Assembly: GCA_964562105.1 (NCBI GenBank)
Contig: CAZLRP010000001.1
Coordinates: forward strand, 2,949 to 66,948
DNA length: 64,000 nucleotides
From: an uncultured Candidatus Saccharibacteria bacterium
GTDB taxonomy: Bacteria > Patescibacteriota > Minisyncoccia > Phycocordibacterales > GWA1-40-21
Direction: 5' to 3'
Part shown: one piece after another, positions 3,548 to 60,303 of the stretch
Layout: each line of letters opens with the position of its first letter
Numbering within the stretch: position 1 is the stretch's first letter
The notes under the pieces: model-generated
Told to the model about the DNA's origin: nothing
The model's input: the letters and a program-made list of their open reading frames with translations, nothing else
Database searches by the model: none
Translations under genes and position numbers: made by a program

Positions 3548-3580
3548 TGGCCCCGTCAAATGCATTTTTATTTGACTGGG
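3548..3580. repeat. P1-related palindromic element, intergenic variant (rpsJ-tuf spacer)
   Basis: GGCCCCGTCAAATGCATTTTTATTTGACTGGGC, same arms with a variant loop. Confidence 0.7.
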
Positions 3581-3676: not shown

Positions 3677-4879
3677 TTACGCAATTATTTTCGTTATAAC
3701 TCCAGAACCAACTGTCTTTCCTCCCTCTCTAATAGCAAACTTCTGTTTATTTTCCATAGCAACTGGAGCAACAAGTTTTACTTTGAAAGTAACTGTGTCT
3801 CCCGGCATAACCATTTCTACTCCTGTAGCAAGCGTAACGTCTCCCGTTACGTCAGTCGTTTTCATATAGAATTGTGGCTTGTAACCTGTAAAGAACGGCG
3901 TATGTCTTCCACCTTCCTCTTTCTTTAATACGTATACTTCAGCTTCAAATTCTGTATGCGGAGTAATGGAACCAGTTTTTGCCAACACTTGTCCTCTGTG
4001 CACATCTTCTTTCTTTGTACCACGAAGAAGAACTCCGGCATTATCTCCAGCTTGTCCTTCTTTGAGCTGTTTATTAAACATTTCTATACCGGTGATAGTT
4101 GTTTTTGATGTTGGTTTGATACCGACAATTTCAACTTCTTCTCCGATTTTTATTATTCCTCTTTCAATTCTTCCGGTAACAACTGTTCCTCTTCCTTCAA
4201 TTGAGAAAATGTCTTCAATAGGCATAAGGAATGGCTTGTCAACATCTCTTACTGGGATTGGTATATATGTATCAAGCGCGGTCATAAGGTCAGTAATACA
4301 TTTTGCACCTGCATCATCTGCTGTTTTTGCCTTTAGAGCTTCCGTAGCTGAACCCCTTATGATAGGAGCTTTTTCTCCATCAAAATTATATTTGGTCAAA
4401 AGTTCTCTAACTTCTGCTTCAACAAGATCCAAAAGTTCTGCATCCGGAACTAGGTCAACTTTGTTTAAGAATACTACTATCTTTGGAACCCCAACTTGGT
4501 TTGCCAAAAGAATGTGTTCTCTTGTTTGTGGCATAGGACCATCAACTGCTGAGACAACAAGAATAGCACCGTCCATTTGAGCGGCTCCTGTAATCATGTT
4601 CTTGATGTAGTCAGCGTGACCCGGACAGTCTACGTGAGCATAGTGTCTTGAGTCTGATGAATATTCAACGTGAGAAATAGCGATGGTAATGATTTTTGTC
4701 GCATCTCTTCTTCCAGCTGATTCTGAAGCTTTTGCGATTTGATCGTAAGCTTTTTCATTAGCCAAACCTTTGAGCGATTGCACGTGAGTAATCGCTGCAG
4801 TCAAAGTTGTCTTACCGTGGTCAATGTGACCAATTGTACCGACATTTACATGCGGTTTATCTCTTAAAAAATCTGCCAT
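3677..4879 (-). CDS. tuf: elongation factor Tu
   Basis: [28 protein letters not shown]-motifs; 400 aa. Confidence 0.97.
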
Positions 4880-5100
4880 ATTTTTGTTATTTTAAAAACA
4901 GGATGCGCGAAAACTTTTACCCTATTTTTAAAACAGTTTTGATTAATTCCCATCATTCACCTACCTGCTCAAGGCTAAGTATGCGAACTGGGAAACTTAT
5001 AAATTACGACTTGCAACTAACGTGGGCTTCCATTACAAAATAAAAACCGCACAGTGCGTACCCGAAATAGTAGCAAAAGAAAAGTAAAGAGTCAACCTCA

Positions 5101-5139
5101 AGACGCAGACTGATGCGGACTTAACGCAGAACTACGCGG
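5101..5139. repeat. P2 repeat, intergenic copy (downstream of tuf-adjacent hypothetical gene)
   Basis: GACGCAGACTGATGCGGACTTAACGCAGAACTACGCGGG; same two sub-motifs in swapped order. Confidence 0.65.
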
Positions 5140-5145
5140 GACAAA

Positions 5146-5180
5146 CAAAGAGCCTTCGCAATAAATTGCGAAGGCTCAAA
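5146..5180 (-). terminator. terminator after the tuf-fusA-inserted hypothetical gene
   Basis: GAGCCTTCGCAATAAATTGCGAAGGCTC. Confidence 0.7.
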
Positions 5181-5194
5181 AGAAATAGGTTTTA

Positions 5195-5869
5195 TTACGG
5201 CATCATACCTTCAAAGATATTTTTGTCTATACTTGACTTCTCAAGTTTATACGTGAAACAAAGAAGGTAGTCATTACTGTCCCAATCATGCCTGGAACAA
5301 ATGGGACGGAATTCAAAGTCATTGTTAGTGCGCGGAACCCATAAAGACGGCATGTTTAAATCAACATCAAAACGATTCCATCGATTCTCCTCATCAAGAG
5401 ATGTATACCAGTGACCTTTAGGCAACTCGTCACGTTTTTGTTCAAAGACAAGTGAGACCCCCTGAACACCTAGAAGAATCGCATTCTTACTTTTAAGAAA
5501 CATCAGACGTTCATCTGATGTTGTTCTACCAGAGATAATTTGTTTCAACACGGAAACATGAAGTTTATCGCCCGGCTTCAAAATCTGAGCCGGGTCGTCA
5601 AACCTATCATCATCAGCAATAAAATCGCTATAGAAAAAAAACTTTTCTTTGTTTTTTTCCTTAAATAACTTTAATCTCGTCTTGTGTTCGTAATCTTTAG
5701 GTACAACAATGACGCCGAGATCTTTTAGAAGAACAAATCTTGGTTTTTGCTCATCTATGATTTTTTGAAAAACATCCGCAACCTTTATTGGGTCACGCTT
5801 CCCATTAAGCACTAAATTGTTAATGGAAGCTTCCAACTTCCACAGTCTTGCAAAAGCATCATTACTCAT
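5195..5869 (-). CDS. hypothetical protein inserted between tuf and fusA
   Basis: 224-aa ORF with its own terminator hairpin at 5146-5180; no recognisable motif; repeat elements lie on both sides. Confidence 0.5.
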   Translation of the reverse strand: MSNDAFARLWKLEASINNLVLNGKRDPIKVADVFQKIIDEQKPRFVLLKDLGVIVVPKDYEHKTRLKLFKEKNKEKFFFYSDFIADDDRFDDPAQILKPGDKLHVSVLKQIISGRTTSDERLMFLKSKNAILLGVQGVSLVFEQKRDELPKGHWYTSLDEENRWNRFDVDLNMPSLWVPRTNNDFEFRPICSRHDWDSNDYLLCFTYKLEKSSIDKNIFEGMMP

Positions 5870-6019
5870 GACCTTCCTCCTTTTTATAAAATATGCCCGC
5901 TACTCACAGGCATTTACTGAATCTAAAGAAATCAAAGCATAATTTAAAATAAATGGCAATCAAAATGCGGGGCAGCCTTCGGCTGCCCCGCATTTTGTAT
6001 TTGTTATTTTCTTATTACT

Positions 6020-6060
6020 TCGTCGCCGGTCACAGGTATTTTTCTGCTGAAAAATCCCGC
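6020..6060. repeat. partial copy of the tRNA-linked module core (TTTTTCTGCTGAAAAA) downstream of fusA
   Basis: shares TCGTCG...TTTTCTGCTGAAAAA...CCGC with the two tRNA-linked copies. Confidence 0.4.
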
Positions 6061-6105
6061 GACCCCGACTCGCGCCGTCGCGCTCCGTCTCACACAAAGC
6101 AAAAG

Positions 6106-6137
6106 AAAAACACCCCATAAATCATAGGGTGTTTTTC
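6106..6137 (-). terminator. terminator after fusA
   Basis: AAAAACACCCCATAAATCATAGGGTGTTTTTC. Confidence 0.7.
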
Positions 6138-6139
6138 AA

Positions 6140-8296
6140 TTATTTGCTTTGTGTGCCCCTCACTTCAATAATTTCTTTGGCTACATTAGGAGGTACTATT
6201 TCATAGCTTCCGAATTCCATTGTGGACGAAGCTCTTCCCTCTGAAATTGACCTCAAGGTGGTAACATAACCGAACATTTCAGCAAGAGGAACATTAGCTC
6301 TGATAACTTTATTCATTCCTCTGTCAAACATTTCAGTTATTTGTCCTCTCCTTGAATTGATGCTTCCCGAAACATCTCCCATGAATTTTTCTGGAGTAAC
6401 AACTTCAACTTTCATTACAGGCTCAAGGAGAACCGGTCTTGCTCTTTTTGCCGCATCTTGAAATGCCATGGACGCTGCAATTTTGTAAGCGATTTCTGAC
6501 GAGTCAACATCGTGATATGAACCGTAAGTAAGTTCGCAAGAAATATTTACCATTCTATATCCGGCAATTACTCCTCTTTCCATGCTCTCTTTTACTCCTT
6601 TTTCAACTGCTGGAATAAATTCTTGCGGAATAACTCCTCCTTTAATAGAATCTATAAATTCAAAGTCATCGTATCTGCTAACATTCTTAGGAATTTTCTT
6701 GCCTTCCTCAAGTTTTTGCATCGGCTTAATTTTAATGAGAACGTGACCATATTGTCCTTTTCCTCCAGACTGTTTTATGTATTTTTCTTCTTTTTCAGCT
6801 TCTCCGGTAATTGTTTCTTTGTAAGCAACTTGTGGTTTTCCAACATTTGCTTCAACTCCGAATTCTCTTTTCATTCTGTCTACAAGAATTTCGAGGTGAA
6901 GTTCTCCCATACCTGCCATAACAGTCTCTCCCGTTTCTTGATCCGACTTGATTTTAAATGTTGGGTCTTCATCCGAAAGTTTCTTCAAAGCAAATCCCAT
7001 TTTTTCTTGGTCAGCTTTTGTCTTTGGTTCAATTCTAAGAGTAATAACCGGTTCTGGAAATACAATTTGGTCAAGAATTATCGGATTGGCTTCATCGCAA
7101 AGAGTGTGAGAAGTTTTCGCGTTTTTCAAACCGACAGCCGCCGCAATTTCTCCGGCAAAAACAGTCTCCACTTCTTCTCTGTCATTTGCGTGCATTCTGA
7201 CAATTCTTCCCAATCTTTCCTTTTCTCCGGTTGTTGAATTGTAAATATAAGTTCCCGAAGAAATACTTCCGGAATAAACTCTGAAATATGTAAGCTGTCC
7301 TACAAAAGGATCATTTTGCAATTTAAATGCCAGAGCGCAAAATGGATCTTCATCAGTTGCATGTCTTAAAACTTCTTCTCCATTGTTTGGATTTATTCCT
7401 TTTACTGGTGGAATATCAAGCGGGGAAGGAAGATAGTCAACAACTGCATCAAGTGTGAGTTGAATACCTTTATTTTTCAAAGCCGAACCTGTAAATACAG
7501 GAACAATCGTATTTGCAATGGTTGCTTTTCGGAGAACTGCTTTGAGCTCATCGATGGGAATCTCTTTTCCTTCAAGATAATCGTTCATAAGCTTTTCATC
7601 ATTTTCAGAAATTTTTTCTACAAGCTCAAGCCTGTATTTTTTTGCATTTTCCAAAAGTTCGGCAGGAATTTCTGCTTCTCTGACAACTTCTCCCATTTCG
7701 CCTTCAAAGTAATAGGCCTTCATTTTTAAAAGATCTACTATTCCTGAAAAATCAGATTCTGAACCAATGGGAAGCTGCATTCTTACAGCATGTTTTGTAA
7801 GTCTTTCCAAAATTGATTGAAATGATCTTTCAAAATTTCCTCCTGTTCTATCAAGTTTGTTTATCAAACAAATTCTTGGAACATTTCCTTCGTCAGCATA
7901 TCTCCAGTTTGTTTCTGATTGAGGTTCCACTCCTGCGACTCCGTCAAAAACAACTACGGCTCCGTCAAGAACTCTGAGTGAACGCTTAACCTCTGCGGTA
8001 AAATCAATGTGGCCGGGAGTATCAATGATATTGAATCTTACTTTCTTACTAAAATCGGTTTTTGGCATGTACGAAGGATTCCAAAAACAAGTAATAGCAG
8101 CTGACGTAATGGTAATACCTCTTTCTCTTTCCTGTTCCATCCAGTCGGTCGTAGTTTCTCCTTCGTGAACCTCACCGATATCGTGCTGAGATCCAGTGTA
8201 ATAGAGAATTCTTTCCGATGTGGTTGTTTTTCCGGCATCAATGTGAGCAATGATTCCAAAATTTCTTACTTTTTCTAATGGATAATCTCGTTTCAT
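6140..8296 (-). CDS. fusA: elongation factor G
   Basis: [28 protein letters not shown]; 718 aa EF-G architecture. Confidence 0.97.
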
Positions 8297-8299
8297 GTA

Positions 8300-8345
8300 T
8301 TTAATATGCGAATATACGAATTATGCGAATGATACGAATGGCTAC
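8300..8345. repeat. heptamer array upstream of fusA
   Basis: ATGCGAATATACGAATTATGCGAATGATACGAATGGCTAC. Confidence 0.65.
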
Positions 8346-8581
8346 AAATAAATACGATGAATTTTTATCATATCTATAATAGTTTTCGTAAGATTATTAT
8401 ACTATATTCATATTTAATTAATTGTTGATAAAATAATTTAAGTAATTTTAATTTACTTTTTTCTTTTTATTTTTAGTGAGATGCGAGGCGCTGAAAAAAT
8501 TTGTGACTAAAATGTACGTTGGTACATTGCAGAAACAAATTTTTTTAGCAACGAAGCAGATTGCAAAAATTAAAAGGAAAT

Positions 8582-11489: not shown

Positions 11490-12365
11490 CTATTTTTCTT
11501 CAATGATAGCCAAACCGCCAGAAATAAAAGAAATGTCTCCTAAATCATAAGTGATTAGCACTTTGCTTTTAATATCATTTAAAAAATCCAATATTTCTTT
11601 GTGTGGATGGCCATAACTATTATTTACTCCCGCAGAAATAACGGAGTATTCTGAATTAACGGCCGATAAAAATTCGGGAGAAAGAGAATTTTTTGACCCA
11701 TGGTGTGCAATTTTCAGCACATCGCTTTTTAATTCTGCTCCATCTGTTTTTGCCAGATATTCTAAAACATCAGTCGGCGCATCCCCAGTGAACATAAAAG
11801 TTGAATCCCCATAATAAAGCTCCGCCACGATAGAATATTTGTTTGTATCAGTTCCTTTTGGATTATTATTCGGATACAAAATTTTTAAATAAGCCCCGCC
11901 GCCAAGATCAAAAATTTTTCCCGTTCTCGCAATTTCTGTTTTTATATTCTTCTCCAAAATTTGATGCTCCAGTTCTTTGAAAGTTCCCGTGCTAGAAGTC
12001 GCTCCACTGCTTATGTATTTTCGAACGGAATAATTTTTAAAAACTTCGGGAATTCCTCCAATATGGTCTTGATCCGGATGAGTCACAAGAATCGCGTCTA
12101 TAGTCTTATCGTAAAAAGGCATTACCCTGCCCAGAGCATTTAAAATATTTTTATCCGGTCCCCCATCTATAAGAAGCTGATTGCCAATTGGCGATTCTAT
12201 AAAAATAGCATCGCCTTGGCCAACATCCAAAAATGAAACTTTTAAAACATTATTCCTGGTTTCGGCTACGACAGTATAAAAAATCATTCCGTTCACAAAA
12301 AGAAGCAGAGCCAAGAAATATATTTTTATTTTATTAAATTTAAACATTTTTTTGTATTGTGTCAT
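11490..12365 (-). CDS. ComEC-related metallo-beta-lactamase-fold domain protein (C-terminal module of ComEC as a separate ORF)
   Basis: LDVGQGDAIFIE...HPDQDHIGG MBL motifs after an N-terminal TM helix; the first ATG lies inside the GIY-YIG element's inverted repeat. Confidence 0.72.
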   Translation of the reverse strand: MTQYKKMFKFNKIKIYFLALLLFVNGMIFYTVVAETRNNVLKVSFLDVGQGDAIFIESPIGNQLLIDGGPDKNILNALGRVMPFYDKTIDAILVTHPDQDHIGGIPEVFKNYSVRKYISSGATSSTGTFKELEHQILEKNIKTEIARTGKIFDLGGGAYLKILYPNNNPKGTDTNKYSIVAELYYGDSTFMFTGDAPTDVLEYLAKTDGAELKSDVLKIAHHGSKNSLSPEFLSAVNSEYSVISAGVNNSYGHPHKEILDFLNDIKSKVLITYDLGDISFISGGLAIIEEK

Positions 12366-12718
12366 TCCCGCGCAGGCGGGAATCCAGTGTTAAATTATAA
12401 TTCTGAACTCAAATCTTTCCATTCTGGATTTTCTTTTTCAATCAACCTTCTTTTCCATAGCCTATTCCATCTTTTTATGCATTTTTCTCTTAATATCGCA
12501 CTTTCTATATCTGTTGTCTGTTCATAATATACAAGAGTTTTAACATTGTATTTTTTAGTAAAACCTTCAACTAAACAATTTTTGTGCTCATATACTCTTC
12601 TCAATAAATCGTTTGTAACTCCGATATACAATGTCCCATCACGCTTACTCGCTAAAATGTAAACATAATAATATTTCATGAAAAGATTATACTGGATTCC
12701 CGCCTTCGCGGGAATGAC
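12361..12718 (-). mobile_element. GIY-YIG family-1 element: 28-bp palindromic hairpins (GTCATTCCCGCGCAGGCGGGAATCCAGT) in inverted orientation flanking a GIY-YIG gene
   Basis: left hairpin 12361-12388, right hairpin 12691-12718; located between the two comEC ORFs. Confidence 0.7.
12395..12679 (-). CDS. GIY-YIG nuclease family protein (URI domain, YhbQ-like)
   Basis: YYVYILASKRDGTLYIGVTNDLLRRVYEH = GIY-YIG motifs; 94 aa; flanked by 28-bp inverted hairpins. Confidence 0.85.
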   Translation of the reverse strand: MKYYYVYILASKRDGTLYIGVTNDLLRRVYEHKNCLVEGFTKKYNVKTLVYYEQTTDIESAILREKCIKRWNRLWKRRLIEKENPEWKDLSSEL

Positions 12719-12723
12719 AAATA

Positions 12724-15546: not shown

Positions 15547-15589
15547 TGAAATGATAATACCATACGTTATACAAAATGAAAAAAGCATT

Positions 15590-15660
15590 GTCATCCCCGC
15601 GGAGGCGGGGATCCAGTATTAAATCAATTCATACTGGATTCCCGTTTTCACGGGAATGAC
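15590..15660. mobile_element. gene-less double-hairpin miniature of the GIY-YIG family-1 element
   Basis: GTCATCCCCGCGGAGGCGGGGATCCAGT + 15-nt spacer + ACTGGATTCCCGTTTTCACGGGAATGAC; same left-end spacer ATTAAAT as in the full element. Confidence 0.65.
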
Positions 15661-15670
15661 AATACAAAAA

Positions 15671-16279: not shown

Positions 16280-16339
16280 ACAACTATTGTATCAAATTGA
16301 TGATATAATATCATCTAATAAGATTTATTAAATTAATTT

Positions 16340-16385
16340 GAATTATTCGTAGCCATTCGTAACATTCGAATAATTTTCGTATATT
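16340..16385. repeat. heptamer array
   Basis: ATTCGTAGCCATTCGTAACATTCGAATAATTTTCGTATAT directly before an ATG. Confidence 0.65.
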
Positions 16386-16387
16386 AT

Positions 16388-16594
16388 ATGGAACAAGAAA
16401 CAATAAAAAAGCTCGCAGAGCTTGAAGAAAAAATTAACAATGTTTATGTATCGGTGGAAAAAACCAGAAAATATTTTTTTTGGACAATGATTATCACAAT
16501 AGCCGTAGTTGTTTTGCCTGTAATTGGGCTAATGTTTGCATTACCGTCATTTATGACTAATTATGTTGGCAGTTTACAAGGTTTGGGGATATAG
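16388..16594 (+). CDS. small membrane protein
   Basis: 68 aa, one TM helix; preceded by an ATTCGTA heptamer array. Confidence 0.35.
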   Translation: MEQETIKKLAELEEKINNVYVSVEKTRKYFFWTMIITIAVVVLPVIGLMFALPSFMTNYVGSLQGLGI

Positions 16595-25273: not shown

Positions 25274-25319
25274 ATGAACACCATTTATAACAGATTTTTA
25301 ATAGAAAATCTACCCGATT

Positions 25320-25377
25320 TTATATTTATTCGTAGCCATTCGTAGATTTGTATCATTCGTATATTTGTATGTTTATC
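25320..25377. repeat. heptamer array
   Basis: TATTCGTAGCCATTCGTAGATTTGTATCATTCGTATATTTGTATGTTTATC, ending at a gene stop. Confidence 0.65.
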
Positions 25378-25920
25378 TTAATATTTTGGAGACTCTTCAG
25401 TACCACTTTCCAATGCTGAATATCTCGCAAGCGCATACAAAAGACTGGATAAACGATTTAAAAAAACAAGAGTTTCTGAATCAATTTTTGCCATACCCTC
25501 TTCGTTTACTGCAACAACCCTTCTTTCTGCTCTGCGTACCAATGTACGAGCAAAATCAAAATCGGCAGACATTTCATTTGCACCGGAAATAAGAAAAGTT
25601 TTAATTGGCGGTAATTTTTTTTCTATATTATCAATAATATTTTCAAGATATTTTGTTTTTTCTTTTTGTATTTTTTTATCTGCACCAGCAACTTGGGCTT
25701 GAATGATAAAAATATTATTCTGAATTATATGAATAATATTCTGAATTTTTTCTCCATCAACCTTATAACTTTTAACTTTACACTTTATAACTCCTAAGTA
25801 TGAATTTGCTTCATCCAAGCACCCCAAAGCTTCGGTTATCGCCGAACTTTTTGAGATTTTCTGGTCGCAACATCCAAACATATTTGTTTTTCCTTTGTCT
25901 CCCTTTTTTGTGTAAAGCAT
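25378..25920 (-). CDS. cob(I)alamin adenosyltransferase (PduO-type)
   Basis: YTKKGDKGKT...ITEALGCLDEANSYLG pattern of PduO/MMAB. Confidence 0.78.
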   Translation of the reverse strand: MLYTKKGDKGKTNMFGCCDQKISKSSAITEALGCLDEANSYLGVIKCKVKSYKVDGEKIQNIIHIIQNNIFIIQAQVAGADKKIQKEKTKYLENIIDNIEKKLPPIKTFLISGANEMSADFDFARTLVRRAERRVVAVNEEGMAKIDSETLVFLNRLSSLLYALARYSALESGTEESPKY

Positions 25921-33974: not shown

Positions 33975-34035
33975 AATTGTATTTATTCGTTGCCATTCGT
34001 ATCATTTGTATAATTCGTATATTCGTATGTTTATC
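33975..34035. repeat. heptamer array
   Basis: TATTCGTTGCCATTCGTATCATTTGTATAATTCGTATATTCGTATGTTTATC. Confidence 0.65.
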
Positions 34036-34593
34036 TTATTTATCTTTCATCTTTACTACAGTAAAATCCAAATTTAAAGACCATTCCGGAACTTTTCTGC
34101 CTTTTATTATTGAATCGGAAAATTTATTTAGCGACATTTTGGTTATATTTATTTTCAAAGGATAATTTTCCAAAGATTTTAAAAATAGTTGGATATTTTG
34201 CCATGCCCCTGTGGCATTAATGTTTATTTTTAATAATTCTTCCCCCATTTTGTCTCCTTTGTCATAAGTTGCGCTTGAAACGGTGTTTATATTGTATTTG
34301 AGCCCGGTATTTGAAATCAGCTGTTCTAATGTTTTTAGGAAATCAACGGTACCTCCTTTCGCTATAATATATTCTTCCAATTTTTTCTGATACATTTCAC
34401 CCAAAATCAAATCATCTTTCATCAAAGTTTCGGCACCTTCTTTTTTTAATTCCGTTTTTATATCGTTTGATTTATTTACAGATTCAGCAATCAAATTCTT
34501 CGTAAAAGAAAACAGAAATACAAAAGCGCCCATAGACGCAATGCCCAGAAGCAGAAAAACGGCTAATAATATTTTTGTTTCTTTTTTAGGCAT
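34036..34593 (-). CDS. type IV pilus assembly protein PilO-like
   Basis: N-terminal TM plus coiled coil; position after pilN. Confidence 0.5.
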   Translation of the reverse strand: MPKKETKILLAVFLLLGIASMGAFVFLFSFTKNLIAESVNKSNDIKTELKKEGAETLMKDDLILGEMYQKKLEEYIIAKGGTVDFLKTLEQLISNTGLKYNINTVSSATYDKGDKMGEELLKININATGAWQNIQLFLKSLENYPLKINITKMSLNKFSDSIIKGRKVPEWSLNLDFTVVKMKDK

Positions 34594-34609: not shown

Positions 34610-34690
34610 TTATTTGCAGCCATTCGTTCACCCTGTTAAATTTGAATTCTATTTAATAGGGTAAATTCGTATAATTTGTTAATTCGTAAT
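34610..34690. repeat. heptamer array
   Basis: GCAGCCATTCGTTCACC...AATTCGTATAATTTGTTAATTCGTAATTAT. Confidence 0.55.
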
Positions 34691-40109: not shown

Positions 40110-40679
40110 GTGATGATTCATAACCATAAAAAATATCTGCTCATTGATTTTTTTGGAGTAATAGCAAAAGAAGTTGCTCCTTTTTGGTTTAATAAATATT
40201 TTTCAGAAGAGTGCGCTTTAAAATTACAAGAAGAAATATTTTCAGATAACATTGACATAAAAGTTAATTCCGAATATGAAATGTATGATATCTTGTCTAA
40301 ATTAATTAATAAAACGCCGAAAGAAATAGAACATGAGATGTTGGCGCTTGTTTTTATAGATGACAAAGTAATCTCGATCCTAAGAAGTTTAAAGAAAAAG
40401 TATATTATCGTACTATGTTCAAATGCTTGTTCTGGTTTCGTAAGAAAAATTATCAAAGATCACGATTTAAGTGATATTTTTAGCGAGATGTACATATCCA
40501 GTGAAATGGGAGTTGCCAAACCAAATGTTCAGTTTTTCCAAAAAGTACTTAATCAATCTAAAATTTTAGAAAAAGAAGCCTTCTTTATTGATGATAATCA
40601 GAAAAATATAGATGTTGCAGAATCTTTAGGAATTGAATCAATTTTGTTTAAAAACACAAGCACACTTCAAAATCTTTAG
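40110..40679 (+). CDS. HAD superfamily hydrolase
   Basis: LIDFFGV motif I region; 189 aa. Confidence 0.65.
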   Translation: MMIHNHKKYLLIDFFGVIAKEVAPFWFNKYFSEECALKLQEEIFSDNIDIKVNSEYEMYDILSKLINKTPKEIEHEMLALVFIDDKVISILRSLKKKYIIVLCSNACSGFVRKIIKDHDLSDIFSEMYISSEMGVAKPNVQFFQKVLNQSKILEKEAFFIDDNQKNIDVAESLGIESILFKNTSTLQNL

Positions 40680-42472
40680 ACTACGTCAACAATCCTCAAT
40701 CTCAACTCTTCCCTACCTCCAAAAAAACTTTTCTCCAGATTCGCAAGTAAATCTATTTTTTCTCCTTTTTCTATTTTCACGGGAAAATCTTCCATCTTAA
40801 CAAAAAAACCAATCGCAGAAATAATTTGCCCTTTCTTATTTTTAAAATTTAGTTTCAAATGTTCATTTTTCTTTCCAAAAATTTTTACATCAGAAATTTC
40901 AATATTATGAAATGCAAAAATCGGTTTTGGATTATCCATTCCAAAAGGTGCAAGCAAACTGATTTCTTTTTCTAAATTATTATTTACATTATCAATATTT
41001 AAGAGAGCGTCCGCAATCAATTCTTTGTCTTCATTTTCGGACACGCTCAATTTCTGATATGCAACCTCAAGCCCATCGGCAAGCAAATCAACTTTTTCCA
41101 AACTCACAGAAAATCCGCCGGAAGAAAAATGTCCACCATACTCGTCAAATAGATGCGCTGATTTTCTCATCATCTCTACAATATTTACACATCCGTCAGA
41201 CCTGCATGAACCTTTCAGGGTTTTTCCTTCTTCTCTTCCCCAGAGAAAAACGGGGCCATTGTGCTCATCCATAAGCGAGTTTGCAACAAGCCCAAGAAGC
41301 GAAGGTTTCCAATCAGGGTTTCCCGCGACAAGAACTTTTCTTTTTTTGTTGGGATCAAATTCATACCAATGTTTTCTGATTTCTTTTACCATTGAAGCTA
41401 CGATCCCTTTTCTCTCATCATTTATTTTATTTAGATGAAGCGCATATTTGATGGCCTCGTTCTCATCTTTTGTCGTGAGTAAATTAAAAGCGTCTTCCGG
41501 AATTCCCATCCTTGAAGCCGCATTTATGCGAGGAGAAATCATAAAACCAATATCATCCTCGGTAATATTTTTTTGATCTGTTTTTATAATAGAAAGCAAT
41601 CTTTGGAGCCCTGATCTTGGAGATTTTCTCAAAACTTTCAAGCCATAGTAAGCAAAAAGTCTGTTTTCTCCGATAAGCGGAACCATATCGGAAATAGTGC
41701 CGATTGCCACCATATCTAGGAGCCACTTTTCCCAACCTGCCGTAAGACAGGTTGCTCCGAGAAATGTCGAGGAGTTTTCTCGTATTTTTTTTATCAAAGC
41801 CTGCACAAGCTTGAAAGCCACACCTGCTCCACAAAGATTTTTATCTGGATATTTACAATTTTTTTGTTTTGGATTGAGTATTGCGAGTGCATGAGGCAAT
41901 TCTTCCCTTGCCCCGTCAAATTGGCTTTTTATTTGACTGGGGTTTTCATCCAGCGAAATTCTTGGCAAGTGGTGGTCCGTGATTATCAAATCTATTTTGT
42001 GTTTTTTTATTTTTTCCGCTTCTTCAACATCGGCAATTCCGCAATCTACAGTAATAATCAAATCCACTTTATTTTTTGCAAATTCGTCCACTGCTTCATC
42101 ATTCAAACCGAAACCTTCAAGAACTCTGTGTGGAATATAATTTTTAAAGTTGTCATAACCGATTTTTTTGAAAAAGTCGTGCAAAATTACAGCACCGGGA
42201 ATTCCATCTGCATCATAATCGCTGTATATAACAATCTTTTCTTTCTTTTCAACAGCCGCCAAGATTCTTTCTACGGCTTTTTCCATTCCGAGCATTAAAA
42301 ACGGGTTATTATTTTCTTCAAAAATAGGGTTTAAAAGGGTTTCGGCTTCTTTTTCTGTTTTGATTCCTCTGTAATACAAGAGTTTGCGTAAAATTTCCGG
42401 AAATTTTCCCAATTCCTCATTAATTTTTTCTGGAATCTCATCTTTTACTAAATATTTTTGCATAAATAACAT
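40676..42472 (-). CDS. recJ: single-stranded-DNA-specific exonuclease RecJ (carries an in-frame palindromic-element insertion)
   Basis: DHH motifs (LIITVDCG, LIITDHH); 598 aa; contains the PSQIKSQFDG insertion. Confidence 0.9.
   Translation of the reverse strand: MLFMQKYLVKDEIPEKINEELGKFPEILRKLLYYRGIKTEKEAETLLNPIFEENNNPFLMLGMEKAVERILAAVEKKEKIVIYSDYDADGIPGAVILHDFFKKIGYDNFKNYIPHRVLEGFGLNDEAVDEFAKNKVDLIITVDCGIADVEEAEKIKKHKIDLIITDHHLPRISLDENPSQIKSQFDGAREELPHALAILNPKQKNCKYPDKNLCGAGVAFKLVQALIKKIRENSSTFLGATCLTAGWEKWLLDMVAIGTISDMVPLIGENRLFAYYGLKVLRKSPRSGLQRLLSIIKTDQKNITEDDIGFMISPRINAASRMGIPEDAFNLLTTKDENEAIKYALHLNKINDERKGIVASMVKEIRKHWYEFDPNKKRKVLVAGNPDWKPSLLGLVANSLMDEHNGPVFLWGREEGKTLKGSCRSDGCVNIVEMMRKSAHLFDEYGGHFSSGGFSVSLEKVDLLADGLEVAYQKLSVSENEDKELIADALLNIDNVNNNLEKEISLLAPFGMDNPKPIFAFHNIEISDVKIFGKKNEHLKLNFKNKKGQIISAIGFFVKMEDFPVKIEKGEKIDLLANLEKSFFGGREELRLRIVDVV
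41911..41942. repeat. P1 palindromic element (CCCCGTCAAATTGGCTTTTTATTTGACTGGGG) inserted in frame in recJ
   Basis: imperfect inverted repeat CCCCGTCAAAT/ATTTGACTGGGG around loop TGGCTTTTT; encodes PSQIKSQFDG on the gene strand. Confidence 0.85.
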
Positions 42473-43298: not shown

Positions 43299-43339
43299 AC
43301 GGTAAGATTATACCATTTTAAAAATATTTGGTATAATTG

Positions 43340-43450
43340 AGATACGAATATACAAATAATACTAATGATACGAATGGCAACGAATAAGAAATTAATTTGA
43401 TTCATTTGTAGCCATTTGTAACATTCGCATAATTCGTTAATTCGTATATC
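43340..43450. repeat. heptamer array (long)
   Basis: GATACGAATATACAAATAATACTAATGATACGAATGGCAACGAATAAG...TTGTAGCCATTTGTAACATTCGCATAATTCGTTAATTCGTATATC before an ATG. Confidence 0.7.
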
Positions 43451-43452
43451 AT

Positions 43453-43914
43453 ATGGAAAACAAAATCTCTTGGGTGGCGTTTGAATATAAAAGAAAAGAA
43501 AAAACCGCAGACTGGTATTGGGCAGTAATTCTTATATCTTTGGTCATAGTGGTAGCATCCATCATCATGCACAATGTTCTTTTTGCAATATTGATAATTA
43601 TCTCCACTGTAATTCTTATGTCATTTTCCGTAGTCGCCCCAAAAACAGTTGAGATAAGTGTAAATCAAAAGGGTGTTACCGTAGGAAAAGAAATGTATCC
43701 CTTTGCAACTCTTGAACATTTTTGGATAGAAAGTACAGACGAAGAAAACCAAAAGATTTTATTAAAATCCAAGAAATTAATTATGCCACTTATAGTTATC
43801 CCCCTTGAAGAACACCATCATCTGGATGTAAGAGAATTTTTACTGCAATATCTTAAAGAAGTAGAAATGCATGAGCCTTTGTCACAGAAAATAATGGAGC
43901 GATTAGGTTTTTAG
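43453..43914 (+). CDS. hypothetical membrane protein
   Basis: two TM helices, 153 aa. Confidence 0.45.
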   Translation: MENKISWVAFEYKRKEKTADWYWAVILISLVIVVASIIMHNVLFAILIIISTVILMSFSVVAPKTVEISVNQKGVTVGKEMYPFATLEHFWIESTDEENQKILLKSKKLIMPLIVIPLEEHHHLDVREFLLQYLKEVEMHEPLSQKIMERLGF

Positions 43915-51134: not shown

Positions 51135-51195
51135 ATGCAATAACCGAGAAAATATAACAAGAAATTAACAAAAAGTCTATAGATAAACCTATGTT

Positions 51196-51346
51196 GTCGT
51201 TCCCGCGCAGGCGGGAATCTAGGTTGAGTTCAATTAATTCTGGATTCCCTTCTTACAGAAGCTGTACACCTTTCACATTTTGATTACAAAACGTTCAAGG
51301 TCTTGCGGAAGCAAAAACTTTTGCTTCCTCACCTCCGCGGGAATGA
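51196..51346. mobile_element. family-1 double-hairpin element with ~95-bp internal insert
   Basis: GTCGTTCCCGCGCAGGCGGGAATCTAGG ... CCGCGGGAATGACAG; internal hairpin GGAAGCAAAAACTTTTGCTTCC is related to hairpins at 25132 and 26768. Confidence 0.55.
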
Positions 51347-51362
51347 CAGACTCACTGCCCTT

Positions 51363-52974: not shown

Positions 52975-53775
52975 TTATTTAAACAATATCAAAGCACTCG
53001 CGACAATAGATGCTGTTTCAGCGCGAAGTATTTGCGGACCAAAAGAAACGCTTTTTATTCCCTTCTGCTTAAACAACCCTCTTTCCTTTTCTGTCCAACC
53101 ACCTTCGGGCCCGATAAGTATTCCTATTTTTCTTGCCCCGTCAAATTGGCTTTTTATTTGACTGGGGTTATCTGAATTACCACACTTCGCTCGCAAAGAC
53201 GAACTAAAATTTTCTCCATCAAAATCAAGAACAAATAATTCTCCATCGAAACCTAAAATAGCTTTTTCTAACAATTCTGGATTAAAAATCTTCGGTAATG
53301 CGGTTTTTCCTGATTGTTCTGCTGATTCTTTTGCAATTTTGTTCAATCTTTCTAGATTTAAATTTTTTTTCTCGCTTCTTTCAGAAATTATTGGATGAAA
53401 AGCAGAAACCCCAATTTCTGTGCATTTTTCCACGACAAATTCAAAATTATCTTTTTTTATAATTGATTGGAAAATGTGCAACTCCACAGACGCGGAACTA
53501 CGCGGATTTGACGCAGACTGATGCGGATTTTTAATTTCTTTATCGACAATTAAAATCGCTTCTTGTTTTGAAAGGATTTTAAAATATGCTTCGTATTCGG
53601 AATTTCCACCATTAAAAATTATTATGCGGCTTACCCCGTCAAATTGGCTTTTTATTTGACTGGGGTCGCTAGCTTTCAGTCTGAAAACTTTTATCCACTG
53701 ATGTAAAAGCTCCTTATCGTCAACGTGAACTTCTTTTTTTATTTCTTTGTTTATATAAAATCTGTGCAGTCTCAT
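52975..53775 (-). CDS. rsmE: 16S rRNA (uracil1498-N3)-methyltransferase RsmE with three in-frame repeat insertions
   Basis: MRLHRFYI start and GILIGPEGGWTEKE C-terminal motif; carries two PSQIKSQFDG insertions and one P2 (SASNPRSSASV) insertion. Confidence 0.8.
   Translation of the reverse strand: MRLHRFYINKEIKKEVHVDDKELLHQWIKVFRLKASDPSQIKSQFDGVSRIIIFNGGNSEYEAYFKILSKQEAILIVDKEIKNPHQSASNPRSSASVELHIFQSIIKKDNFEFVVEKCTEIGVSAFHPIISERSEKKNLNLERLNKIAKESAEQSGKTALPKIFNPELLEKAILGFDGELFVLDFDGENFSSSLRAKCGNSDNPSQIKSQFDGARKIGILIGPEGGWTEKERGLFKQKGIKSVSFGPQILRAETASIVASALILFK
53146..53167. repeat. P1 palindromic element copy in rsmE (first)
   Basis: identical 30-nt core, in frame (SQIKSQFDG). Confidence 0.85.
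53491..53530. repeat. P2 repeat (CGCGGAACTACGCGG...GACGCAGACTGATGCGGA) inserted in frame in rsmE
   Basis: encodes SASNPRSSASV within rsmE. Confidence 0.7.
53634..53665. repeat. P1 palindromic element copy in rsmE (second)
   Basis: identical core, in frame (NPSQIKSQFDG). Confidence 0.85.
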
Positions 53776-53832
53776 AATTAATGTGATATTTAGTATACAG
53801 TTATAGCATAAGAAAATCAAAAACAAAAAATT

Positions 53833-53903
53833 GTCATTCCCGCGGAGGCGGGAATCCAGTATTAATTCAATTCAACACTAGATTCCCGCCTCCGCGGGAA
53901 TGA
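53833..53903. mobile_element. gene-less double-hairpin miniature of the GIY-YIG family-1 element
   Basis: GTCATTCCCGCGGAGGCGGGAATCCAGT + 18-nt spacer + TAGATTCCCGCCTCCGCGGGAATGAC, between rsmE and clpP. Confidence 0.65.
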
Positions 53904-53974
53904 CACGATAAGATGGTTGCTTTCAATTAATTTTTGATATATCCTTGAATTGTCTTTAATAATTTAATTGGTTA

Positions 53975-59359: not shown

Positions 59360-59430
59360 CCCAGGTTAAATTGTATTTATTCGTAGCCATTCGTATCATT
59401 CGCATAATTCGTTGATTCGTATGTTTATCT
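59360..59430. repeat. heptamer array
   Basis: TATTCGTAGCCATTCGTATCATTCGCATAATTCGTTGATTCGTATGTTTATC. Confidence 0.65.
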
Positions 59431-60140
59431 TAAAATTTAACTATCTTCGCTTTATTTTTATACTTTTTTATTAAAACCTGATCTCCATTATCAAGAATTA
59501 TTTCTTCATCGTTGTTATCCGCATAAACGATTGCTTTACCTCGAGTTATTTTTACGACGATTTCGGAATCTTCTTTTAAAACCATGTGGTCCGATTGTTC
59601 TATACTATTATTGAAAGCTACTCCGATGCCAACTTCAAAAAAACTATCGGTAATAGATCTATAATATCCGGTTGAGCCATAAGGTGTAGAAACAGCAACA
59701 CCATCACCTATTATTTCCTCGCCCACCTTTTTATCGTTTATAAAAATTTCATATCGTATAGCACACCTTGGATCAATATTGTGAACGATAATTTCGTTTA
59801 GCCCAACAATTTTTCTTGTCCCGTCAAATTGGCTTTTTATTTGACTGGGATTACCGCAAGAAGTAGCTTCAATTTTAATTTCATCTTCAACCCTGTATTC
59901 CTTCTTTGTAATTTTTTTTAAAATTTCTTCTGGTGATAAATCATGTCCTTTTTTTGAAGTTTTACTTTTCTTCAAAATAAACTTCGGAATTTCAGGATAA
60001 TCTTTTTCTGATTTCATAAGTGTTCCGTCCCCACCGACGACTGCCACCATGTCTGGAGTCTCAGTAACTATTTTAAAACCGGTCTTTTCTACAAGTTTTA
60101 TTATTTCTTCAGTTTTGTGACCGTAGATTAGGAGGTTCAT
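59430..60140 (-). CDS. ppnK: NAD kinase (with in-frame palindromic-element insertion)
   Basis: VVGGDGTLM motif, GSTGY motif; contains PSQIKSQFDG insertion; start uncertain (an alternative ATG lies 42 nt upstream). Confidence 0.8.
   Translation of the reverse strand: MNLLIYGHKTEEIIKLVEKTGFKIVTETPDMVAVVGGDGTLMKSEKDYPEIPKFILKKSKTSKKGHDLSPEEILKKITKKEYRVEDEIKIEATSCGNPSQIKSQFDGTRKIVGLNEIIVHNIDPRCAIRYEIFINDKKVGEEIIGDGVAVSTPYGSTGYYRSITDSFFEVGIGVAFNNSIEQSDHMVLKEDSEIVVKITRGKAIVYADNNDEEIILDNGDQVLIKKYKNKAKIVKF
59820..59849. repeat. P1 palindromic element copy in the NAD kinase gene
   Basis: identical core, in frame (NPSQIKSQFDG). Confidence 0.85.
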
Positions 60141-60303
60141 ATTTATATTTGTGCCAATTATTCTCTTTATGGTACACACCATTCTATTCCAAATTTTCTC
60201 AAAAAGAAAGAGGTTTTTAATTACAATTTAATCCCTTGATTAACATTTTTAAAGTGCTAGATTTAAAGCAGAAGATCTTAAACGAACTATTCTGGAGGCA
60301 GAG

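Follow-up and report, generated by a model that had tools for sequence, protein, structure and literature searches.

Two short GC-rich sequences in a 64,000-nucleotide stretch of DNA from an uncultured Candidatus Saccharibacteria bacterium (contig CAZLRP010000001.1; this whole stretch is hereafter the window) are members of a large dispersed family of tandem decamer repeats. One copy lies inside rsmE, the gene for a 16S rRNA methyltransferase, and the other lies in the non-coding region upstream of tuf. With little better than even confidence, both are read here as solo copies of this family, the one in rsmE being tolerated in frame, and the family is taken to spread, probably, with nuclease genes of the GxxExxY (PDDEXK_3) type.

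Read directly from the window, the rsmE copy (53491-53530) is CGCGGAACTACGCGGATTTGACGCAGACTGATGCGGATTT, and the tuf-upstream copy (5101-5139) is GACGCAGACTGATGCGGA followed by CGCAGAACTACGCGG. An initial annotation made from the sequence alone had described these as two sub-motifs in swapped order. The matching sequences are present, but swappable sub-motifs are not: each locus is a single array of four head-to-tail units of ~10.5 nucleotides (nt), with the core AYGCRGA and spacers of 3, 4 and 3 nt. Two units make up a double unit of 21 nt, equal to seven codons, and the two double units stand in the order B-A in rsmE and A-B upstream of tuf. The two arrays agree at 20 of the 21 positions of the A double unit. 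Such a near-identical 21-nt unit at both loci suggests intragenomic copying or gene conversion.

The same annotation named chance similarity between GC-rich 15-mers as a refuting alternative, and the statistics speak against it. The 18-mer GACGCAGACTGATGCGGA occurs exactly twice in the window and had no match across 100 dinucleotide shuffles. The 15-mer CGCAGAACTACGCGG, which matches the window with 0 and with 1 mismatch, is marginal when taken alone, at least two matches being found in 2 of 100 shuffles. A profile built from 97 independent metagenome arrays and run over the whole 64 kb retrieved these two sites exclusively (E = 5e-9 and 8e-9; next match E = 1.5). The GC-rich array blocks are conspicuous because the window is AT-rich (30-39% G+C).

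To survey the family outside the window, a 3-unit pattern was scanned against species-representative genomes and a 4-unit pattern (spacing 3-4-3) against metagenomes, yielding at least 120 arrays in each, so that public collections contain well over 240; the frequencies that follow hold among the matches listed. Outside the candidate phyla radiation (CPR), the arrays consist of ACGCRGAT-type decamers and occur in Nostocales, Anaerolineae, other Chloroflexi, Acidobacteria, Proteobacteria and others. Their period is 10 nt, those on low-GC contigs are intergenic, and inverted pairs are frequent. Spacing differs between the groups: 109 of 136 arrays from other bacteria have the spacing 3,3, whereas 21 of 24 arrays from CPR-like loci have 3,4 or 4,3 and none has 3,3. 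Two-arm versions of the array occur elsewhere (L094, L100, L140), as do nested or mixed-core arrays (L145, L092, L097).

Of 102 arrays on low-GC metagenome contigs, 52 are located inside stop-free open reading frames (ORFs) of at least 200 residues. The hosts of in-frame arrays match 73 Pfam families, among them class I aminoacyl-tRNA synthetases, PolX, TGT, TsaD, enolase, AtpA, MnmA, L4, KsgA and LepA; further in-frame hosts are TopA, RecG, a beta-CASP RNase, UvrA, UvrB and IF-2. For AtpA and PolX, the Pfam domain match is lengthened by about one array length. Coding arrays are mostly read in the sense orientation (43 versus 9). The frame T-Q/R-x-N-A-D accounts for 29 cases, and the antisense frame used in the window, P/L-R-x-S-A, is a minority of 8. 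Hydrophilic frames predominate, and long ORFs contain hardly any hydrophobic ones such as ICV.LR, a pattern that selection for tolerable peptides would produce.

A different arrangement is seen on phage-like IMG/VR contigs (L268, L262/L302, L291 and L304; 62-64% G+C), each of which carries 2-6 co-oriented ACGCRGATGA arrays. Each of these arrays is directly followed by TCGGAAGGAT, in several cases then by a start codon, with a Shine-Dalgarno sequence and ATG downstream. Judged from this layout, they resemble a leader or regulatory element repeated before many genes. No description of the arrays, or of their in-frame spread in CPR bacteria, was found in the searched literature, whose coverage is incomplete.

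The association with GxxExxY (PDDEXK_3) nucleases is most direct in CPR genes that carry both. Two CPR RecG genes (L038 774-3488 and L169 4413-7190) contain a PDDEXK_3 domain in frame at the same site, between helicase motifs II and III, with matches to PF13366 (4e-31) and TIGR04256. The insert is bordered by two arrays of opposite orientation, one forward and one reverse, those of L169 being degenerate with 1-2 units each, and what remains after removal of the arrays and the embedded domain is a normal RecG sequence. Similarly, a LepA gene (L233 9904-12135) holds a complete PDDEXK_3 domain in frame with an array at its upstream border. No intein or intron signature was found in these three RecG and LepA inserts, so the nuclease domain would stay part of the host protein.

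Free-standing genes provide further evidence. In L010, L246 and L250, from Chloroflexi and other bacteria, GxxExxY genes have arrays on both sides, and in L246 and L250 each side is a palindromic array; in L044 the gene runs to the end of the locus and arrays stand on its one readable side. Array-encoded tails such as DADKHG and DTDEHR end 11 of 120 GxxExxY proteins, compared with 0.2 in shuffled tails and none in protein interiors. Among array-selected loci, three of nine nuclease genes have an array of at least three units no more than 60 nt away, against 0.73 expected (p ~0.03). Elsewhere, GxxExxY genes are flanked by arrays of other cores, for instance ACTAAT and AGGAT, and a scan in the reverse direction, which started at the nuclease gene and looked for arrays in viral contigs, gave 2 loci only. 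As a side observation, GxxExxY genes in L181 and L193 are flanked by arrays with ACTAAT and ACGAAT cores, and such arrays are also nested in the ACGCAGA two-arm array of L145. PDDEXK_3 figures in a 2012 survey of the PD-(D/E)XK superfamily as a family of unknown function that has undergone multiple transfers (PMC3424549).

The bracketing of GxxExxY genes by arrays suggests, by analogy, a mobile system like that of repetitive extragenic palindromic (REP) sequences and the REP-associated tyrosine transposases (RAYTs). The double unit of the CPR branch is 10 + 11 = 21 nt; since this equals seven codons, copies can sit in genes without shifting the frame. In the reading favoured here, this repeat is carried along by a nuclease. 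The family would have spread at the DNA level together with the nuclease genes, the nuclease may recognise or cut at the arrays, and repair or transposition would then copy the arrays with or without the nuclease gene. Solo arrays like the two in the window would be non-autonomous or dead copies, and the rsmE copy is translated as a hydrophilic Ser/Ala/Pro/Asn peptide that is simply tolerated. A broader proposal, possible in our view but doubtful, is that AYGCRGA arrays, arrays with variant cores (ACACAGA, ACGAAT, ACTAAT, AGGAT) and GxxExxY nucleases form an undescribed multi-phylum mobile system, similar to that of RAYTs and REPINs (inverted REP doublets), whose CPR branch would have evolved a codon-compatible 21-nt unit that lets arrays and nuclease domain colonise essential genes in frame.

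The in-frame array of the window lies in RsmE. The protein has 266 residues, compared with 228-235 in most orthologues, that is, ~35 extra; its homologues in a search came from Paceibacterota, Taylorbacteria and similar CPR bacteria, and the organism is a member of the CPR related to Paceibacteria. The gene reads the array antisense and in frame as NPHQSAS-NPRSSAS, to which the peptide SASNPRSSASV given in the initial annotation belongs. In the orthologue alignment, the extra residues form three blocks, namely two PSQIKSQFDG segments and the array. The earlier count of three repeat insertions is thereby confirmed as two copies of the hairpin repeat CCCCGTCAAATTGGCTTTTTATTTGACTGGGG plus the array, and the three match the segments at residues 36-47, 84-95 and 196-212, the only ones with a predicted local distance difference test (pLDDT) score below 50 in the AlphaFold model. 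In this model, the array segment (84-95) follows strand 72-82, the last of the N-terminal domain, and precedes strand 98-104, the first of the SPOUT domain. This places the array in the linker that joins the PUA-like N-terminal domain to the SPOUT methyltransferase domain.

The gene is intact despite the array, its family score lying above the cut-off. Aligned RsmE orthologues carry insertions of several repeat families in several loops, and in that sense rsmE is tolerant of insertions. The array is, as annotated, a second in-frame repeat family of this gene. The proposal that it is a preferred or tolerant landing site therefore holds for tolerance; rsmE is not special, as arrays lie in frame in many other genes.

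Comparison of RsmE orthologues, a check proposed with the initial annotation, recovered arrays at the same linker and other repeat families in other loops. The linker could be compared in 86 homologues with recognisable anchors and has 13 residues in 78 of them. Array-like sequence is present at the linker in seven, six with linkers of 20-22 residues and one (P0063) with 13. The array occupies the same site in P0002, P0003, P0006, P0035, P0063 and P0100, and the orthologues sharing it have 59-71% identity. At the DNA level, L002, L004 and L005 show the same unit structure at the same rsmE site, with cores partly decayed in L005. The array identities to the window are 37/42 (L002), 30/42 (L004) and 29/40 (L005), compared with whole-gene identities of 76%, 72% and 68%, the values for L004 and L005 being close to those of the gene; the array therefore drifts about as fast as rsmE. 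P0063 has one double unit, the window and L002 have two each, and L004 has ~2.5. The same array was recovered in L002 and L003, which were assembled independently, and is therefore not an assembly artefact. Arrays at the same site in seven of the 86 homologues indicate that the rsmE copy is old and vertically inherited, with a variable number of units and with cores decaying in some lineages. The suggestion of a recent insertion, implied by the term landing site, is contradicted by the sharing of the site among such divergent orthologues and by divergence roughly at the gene's own rate.

Several other repeats were observed in and around rsmE. The CCCCGTCAAATTGGCTTTTTATTTGACTGGGG family (D2) has five copies in the window, all on the + strand, four of which are in frame and encode (N)PSQIKSQFDG. 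RsmE has two of these, RecJ (40676-42472) has a third, and the fourth belongs to a 250-aa gene (59430-60182) that we take, from its sequence alone, to be NAD kinase. The peptide PSQIKSQFDG is also present in other loops of RsmE orthologues. Ahead of the third insert, the segment SLRAKCGN (window 53180-53215, - strand; RsmE ~196-203) resembles SLRAERGNPGL (P0006), SLRGAERRGN (P0022) and SLRAHLAF...SNP (P0007) in the same loop of orthologues, and may represent a fourth, decayed repeat family. In addition, inverted-repeat pairs of GTCATTCCCGCGSAGGCGGGAATCCAG, of the form ATTCCC-N8-GGGAAT, occur at four places in the window, one directly upstream of rsmE. This repeat is translated as VIPAQAGIQE and SFLRRQESIL within the RsmE orthologues P0100, P0035 and P0063.

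The tuf-upstream array lies in a 315-nt gap between a 224-aa gene and tuf, antisense to tuf. Its description as non-coding is correct: no ORF of at least 50 residues covers 5102-5143. On the minus strand, the array is immediately followed by a promoter-like match, and it thus lies between a terminator-like hairpin and this match (Table 1). The str operons normally have no gene between fusA and tuf. No inverted partner array was found on the far side of the 224-aa gene. Between that gene and fusA lies a GC-rich island, AATCCCGCGACCCCGACTCGCGCCGTCGCGCTCCGTCTCAC (window 6040-6100), which is unlike the ACGCRGA family.

Several known classes of short repeat were considered. A DNA uptake sequence (DUS/USS) was rejected: with both strands counted, there are 27 instances of AYGCRGA, where Markov models predict 19-24, and seven of the 27 lie inside the two arrays. 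A miniature inverted-repeat transposable element was likewise rejected, the window copies being single-armed and the empty sites in L253 and L254 showing neither a target-site duplication nor a clean boundary. With 1 to ~2.5 double units among orthologues, the array at the rsmE site behaves as a variable-number tandem repeat, and this behaviour accounts for length variation, not for dispersal. A crude periodicity test on gene flanks gave ~34% positives in controls and was discarded.

By analogy, the closest known phenomenon to the in-frame arrays is that of the Rickettsia palindromic elements (RPEs; Ogata et al. 2000, 2002, as summarised in PMC10969869). Both are dispersed repeats in the small AT-rich genome of a host-dependent bacterium, and both lie in frame in many unrelated housekeeping genes, are translated at fold-compatible positions and have other copies in intergenic regions. 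The differences are these: an RPE is a hairpin palindrome of ~100-150 bp, whereas the arrays here are 42 nt of direct ~10.5-nt units for which a hairpin is not supported. The two are unrelated in sequence, the phylum is another, the decamer family is spread far beyond one genus, and it is associated with a nuclease gene family, an association not described for RPEs. Because palindrome and size both disagree, the arrays are a functional analogue of RPEs and not members of that class.

The REP/REPIN-RAYT systems share other features with the arrays. Both comprise short, mostly non-autonomous repeats found as singlets and inverted doublets, with a candidate mobilising gene flanked by repeats, lineage-specific repeat flavours, and singlets that resemble decaying immobile copies; repeats flanking their own gene are the signature that tied REPs to RAYTs (PMC3116915). 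The flanked gene here, however, encodes a PD-(D/E)XK (GxxExxY) nuclease and not an IS200-family tyrosine HUH transposase, and a REP is a single imperfect extragenic palindrome of 20-40 nt, whereas the CPR arrays are direct repeats and often intragenic. The array-nuclease arrangement is analogous to REP/RAYT without being a member, and mobilisation is put forward as a proposal.

Two further comparisons concern cyanobacteria-type repeats and homing nucleases. Elhai and colleagues reportedly described, in 2008, small dispersed repeats (SDRs) of 21-27 nt in Nostoc with shared secondary structure and compensatory changes. These are said to be very small, seemingly mobile units that are often nested with tandem short repeats, as in L145, L092 and L097; the structure and compensatory changes attributed to them were not found in the arrays, which are set apart by this description. 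I-Ssp6803I is a PD-(D/E)XK homing endonuclease; as in the RecG and LepA genes above, a small PD-(D/E)XK nuclease gene is inserted in conserved host genes. In L038, L169 and L233, by contrast, the domain is in frame without intron or intein, and nuclease activity is predicted.

The least probable alternative to the favoured reading is that the element is a structured RNA or DNA hairpin forming two 4-bp stem-loops. Stems CGCG/CGCG and CGCA/TGCG are predicted, and the folding z-score reaches -2.2 for the rsmE copy, but it is only -0.7 to -1.6 for the other. Across 126 arrays, the purine at core position 5 and the pyrimidine at position 2 of the following unit varied without association (Fisher p = 0.46; p = 1.0 on low-GC contigs). 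Rfam matched only tRNAs in the whole window at the gathering score and nothing at the array in a permissive search of 4700-6300, around the tuf-upstream copy; the rsmE array was covered at the gathering threshold only. Folding, which the initial annotation had named as a check, thus lends it no support, and the hairpins simply follow from a core that is partly palindromic. It is also highly improbable that the encoded peptide itself is selected as a flexible Ser/Ala/Pro linker module benefiting RsmE and other proteins. The location within an inter-domain linker, the predominance of hydrophilic frames among coding copies and the retention of the array in several orthologues would fit; yet 78 of 86 RsmE homologues were counted as managing without it, the same DNA is found in a non-coding position, and at least four frames or orientations are used, yielding unrelated peptides. 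Very little credence, to the same degree, is given to independent origin of each array by replication slippage, with the likeness due to convergence of GC-rich decamers. Head-to-tail units and the varying unit number at the rsmE site are what slippage produces, and it can lengthen an array. It cannot seed one sequence everywhere, and it leaves unexplained an exact 18-mer, spacer included, at two loci 48 kb apart and one core with one spacing rule at hundreds of unrelated loci and genomes.

A stronger contender, though still unlikely, holds that the arrays are cis-acting sites of host or phage, namely helically phased binding sites for a DNA- or RNA-binding protein that serve transcription, translation or nucleoid structure, with coding copies incidental or DNA-bound. 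The period of 10-10.5 nt matches the DNA helical repeat, cores are conserved while spacers vary, the tuf-upstream copy is directly upstream of a promoter-like match, and L268, L262, L291 and L304 carry their 2-6 arrays directly before a Shine-Dalgarno sequence and ATG. Against this, the tuf-upstream copy is antisense to tuf, about half of the low-GC-contig arrays among the matches listed lie inside unrelated housekeeping genes in either orientation, and cores have decayed in some orthologues (L005). Spread with GxxExxY nucleases faces difficulties of its own. The window has only two arrays and no PDDEXK_3 gene, and a permissive hidden Markov model search found no nuclease remnant between the arms of the two-arm in-frame arrays L094, L100, L140 and L145. 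On the phage-like contigs with co-oriented arrays, no nuclease gene is nearby, an arrangement more in line with a cis-acting role than with selfish spread. As for adjacency, the statistic is modest and comes from loci chosen for having arrays. The empty sites L253 and L254, compared with the window, indicate a net gain of ~24 nt, again with no clean insertion boundary or target duplication, and nuclease genes might merely insert at pre-existing arrays instead of mobilising them.

Table 1. Coordinates of the arrays, their host gene and other features of the window
Feature	Position	Strand	Remarks
ACGCRGA-type tandem array in rsmE	53489..53530	+ (defining strand)	four cores at 53490, 53500, 53511 and 53521; spacers 3, 4, 3 nt
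Units of the rsmE array	from 53490	+	ACGCGGA-act, ACGCGGA-tttg, ACGCAGA-ctg, ATGCGGA
Second array, non-coding	5102..5143	+	cores at 5103, 5113, 5124 and 5134; last core degenerate (ACGCGGG)
Units of the second array	from 5103	+	ACGCAGA-ctg, ATGCGGA-ctta, ACGCAGA-act, ACGCGGG
rsmE, 16S rRNA U1498 N3-methyltransferase (RsmE family)	52975..53775	-	266 aa; PF04452; TIGR00046 147 bits vs cut-off 41
Hairpin repeat (family D2), copy in rsmE	53634..53665	+	encodes PSQIKSQFDG, RsmE residues ~37-46
Hairpin repeat (family D2), other rsmE copy	53136..53167	+	encodes PSQIKSQFDG, RsmE residues ~203-212
Hairpin repeat (family D2), remaining copies	41909-41940, 59817-59848, 3550-3580	+	
Inverted-repeat pairs ATTCCC-N8-GGGAAT	12350-12720, 15579-15662, 51185-51349, 53822-53906		
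224-aa ORF between fusA and tuf	5195-5869	-	no Pfam or NCBIfam match
Terminator-like hairpin after the 224-aa hypothetical gene	5150..5177	-	6 nt from the non-coding array
Sigma-70-like promoter match upstream of tuf	5067..5095	-	TTGACT, 17-nt spacer, TACTAT, TG; consensus match only
TACGAAT / ATTCGTA arrays	1549-1677, 8298-8366, 16335-16398, 25317-25380		
TACGAAT / ATTCGTA arrays, continued	33975-34038, 34665-34688, 43334-43457, 59369-59432		

Two observations stand apart from the two arrays. The window also contains AT-rich tandem arrays with a period of ~9 nt and the core TACGAAT / ATTCGTA (Table 1), often as adjacent inverted arrays and apparently intergenic, with the same architecture as the ACGCRGA arrays. 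On CPR-like contigs, class I aminoacyl-tRNA synthetase ORFs (L127 3338-7084 and three others) match the histidine phosphatase domain His_Phos_1; in L127 this domain spans residues 520-701 within the ORF, adjoining the catalytic-domain match.

For the window itself, the message is modest: its two copies are tolerated relics. If the reading of arrays spreading with GxxExxY nucleases is true, CPR bacteria (Patescibacteria) would join Rickettsia as a lineage with selfish repeats inside essential genes, with a repeat unit that in the CPR appears matched to the codon frame. Gene calling and orthologue alignment would be affected, as would the reading of puzzling extra segments in CPR proteins. It would also account for the ACGCRGAT-type decamer arrays across intergenic regions of cyanobacteria, Chloroflexi and many metagenome-assembled genomes, and would give the very large GxxExxY / PDDEXK_3 family of unknown function a testable role.

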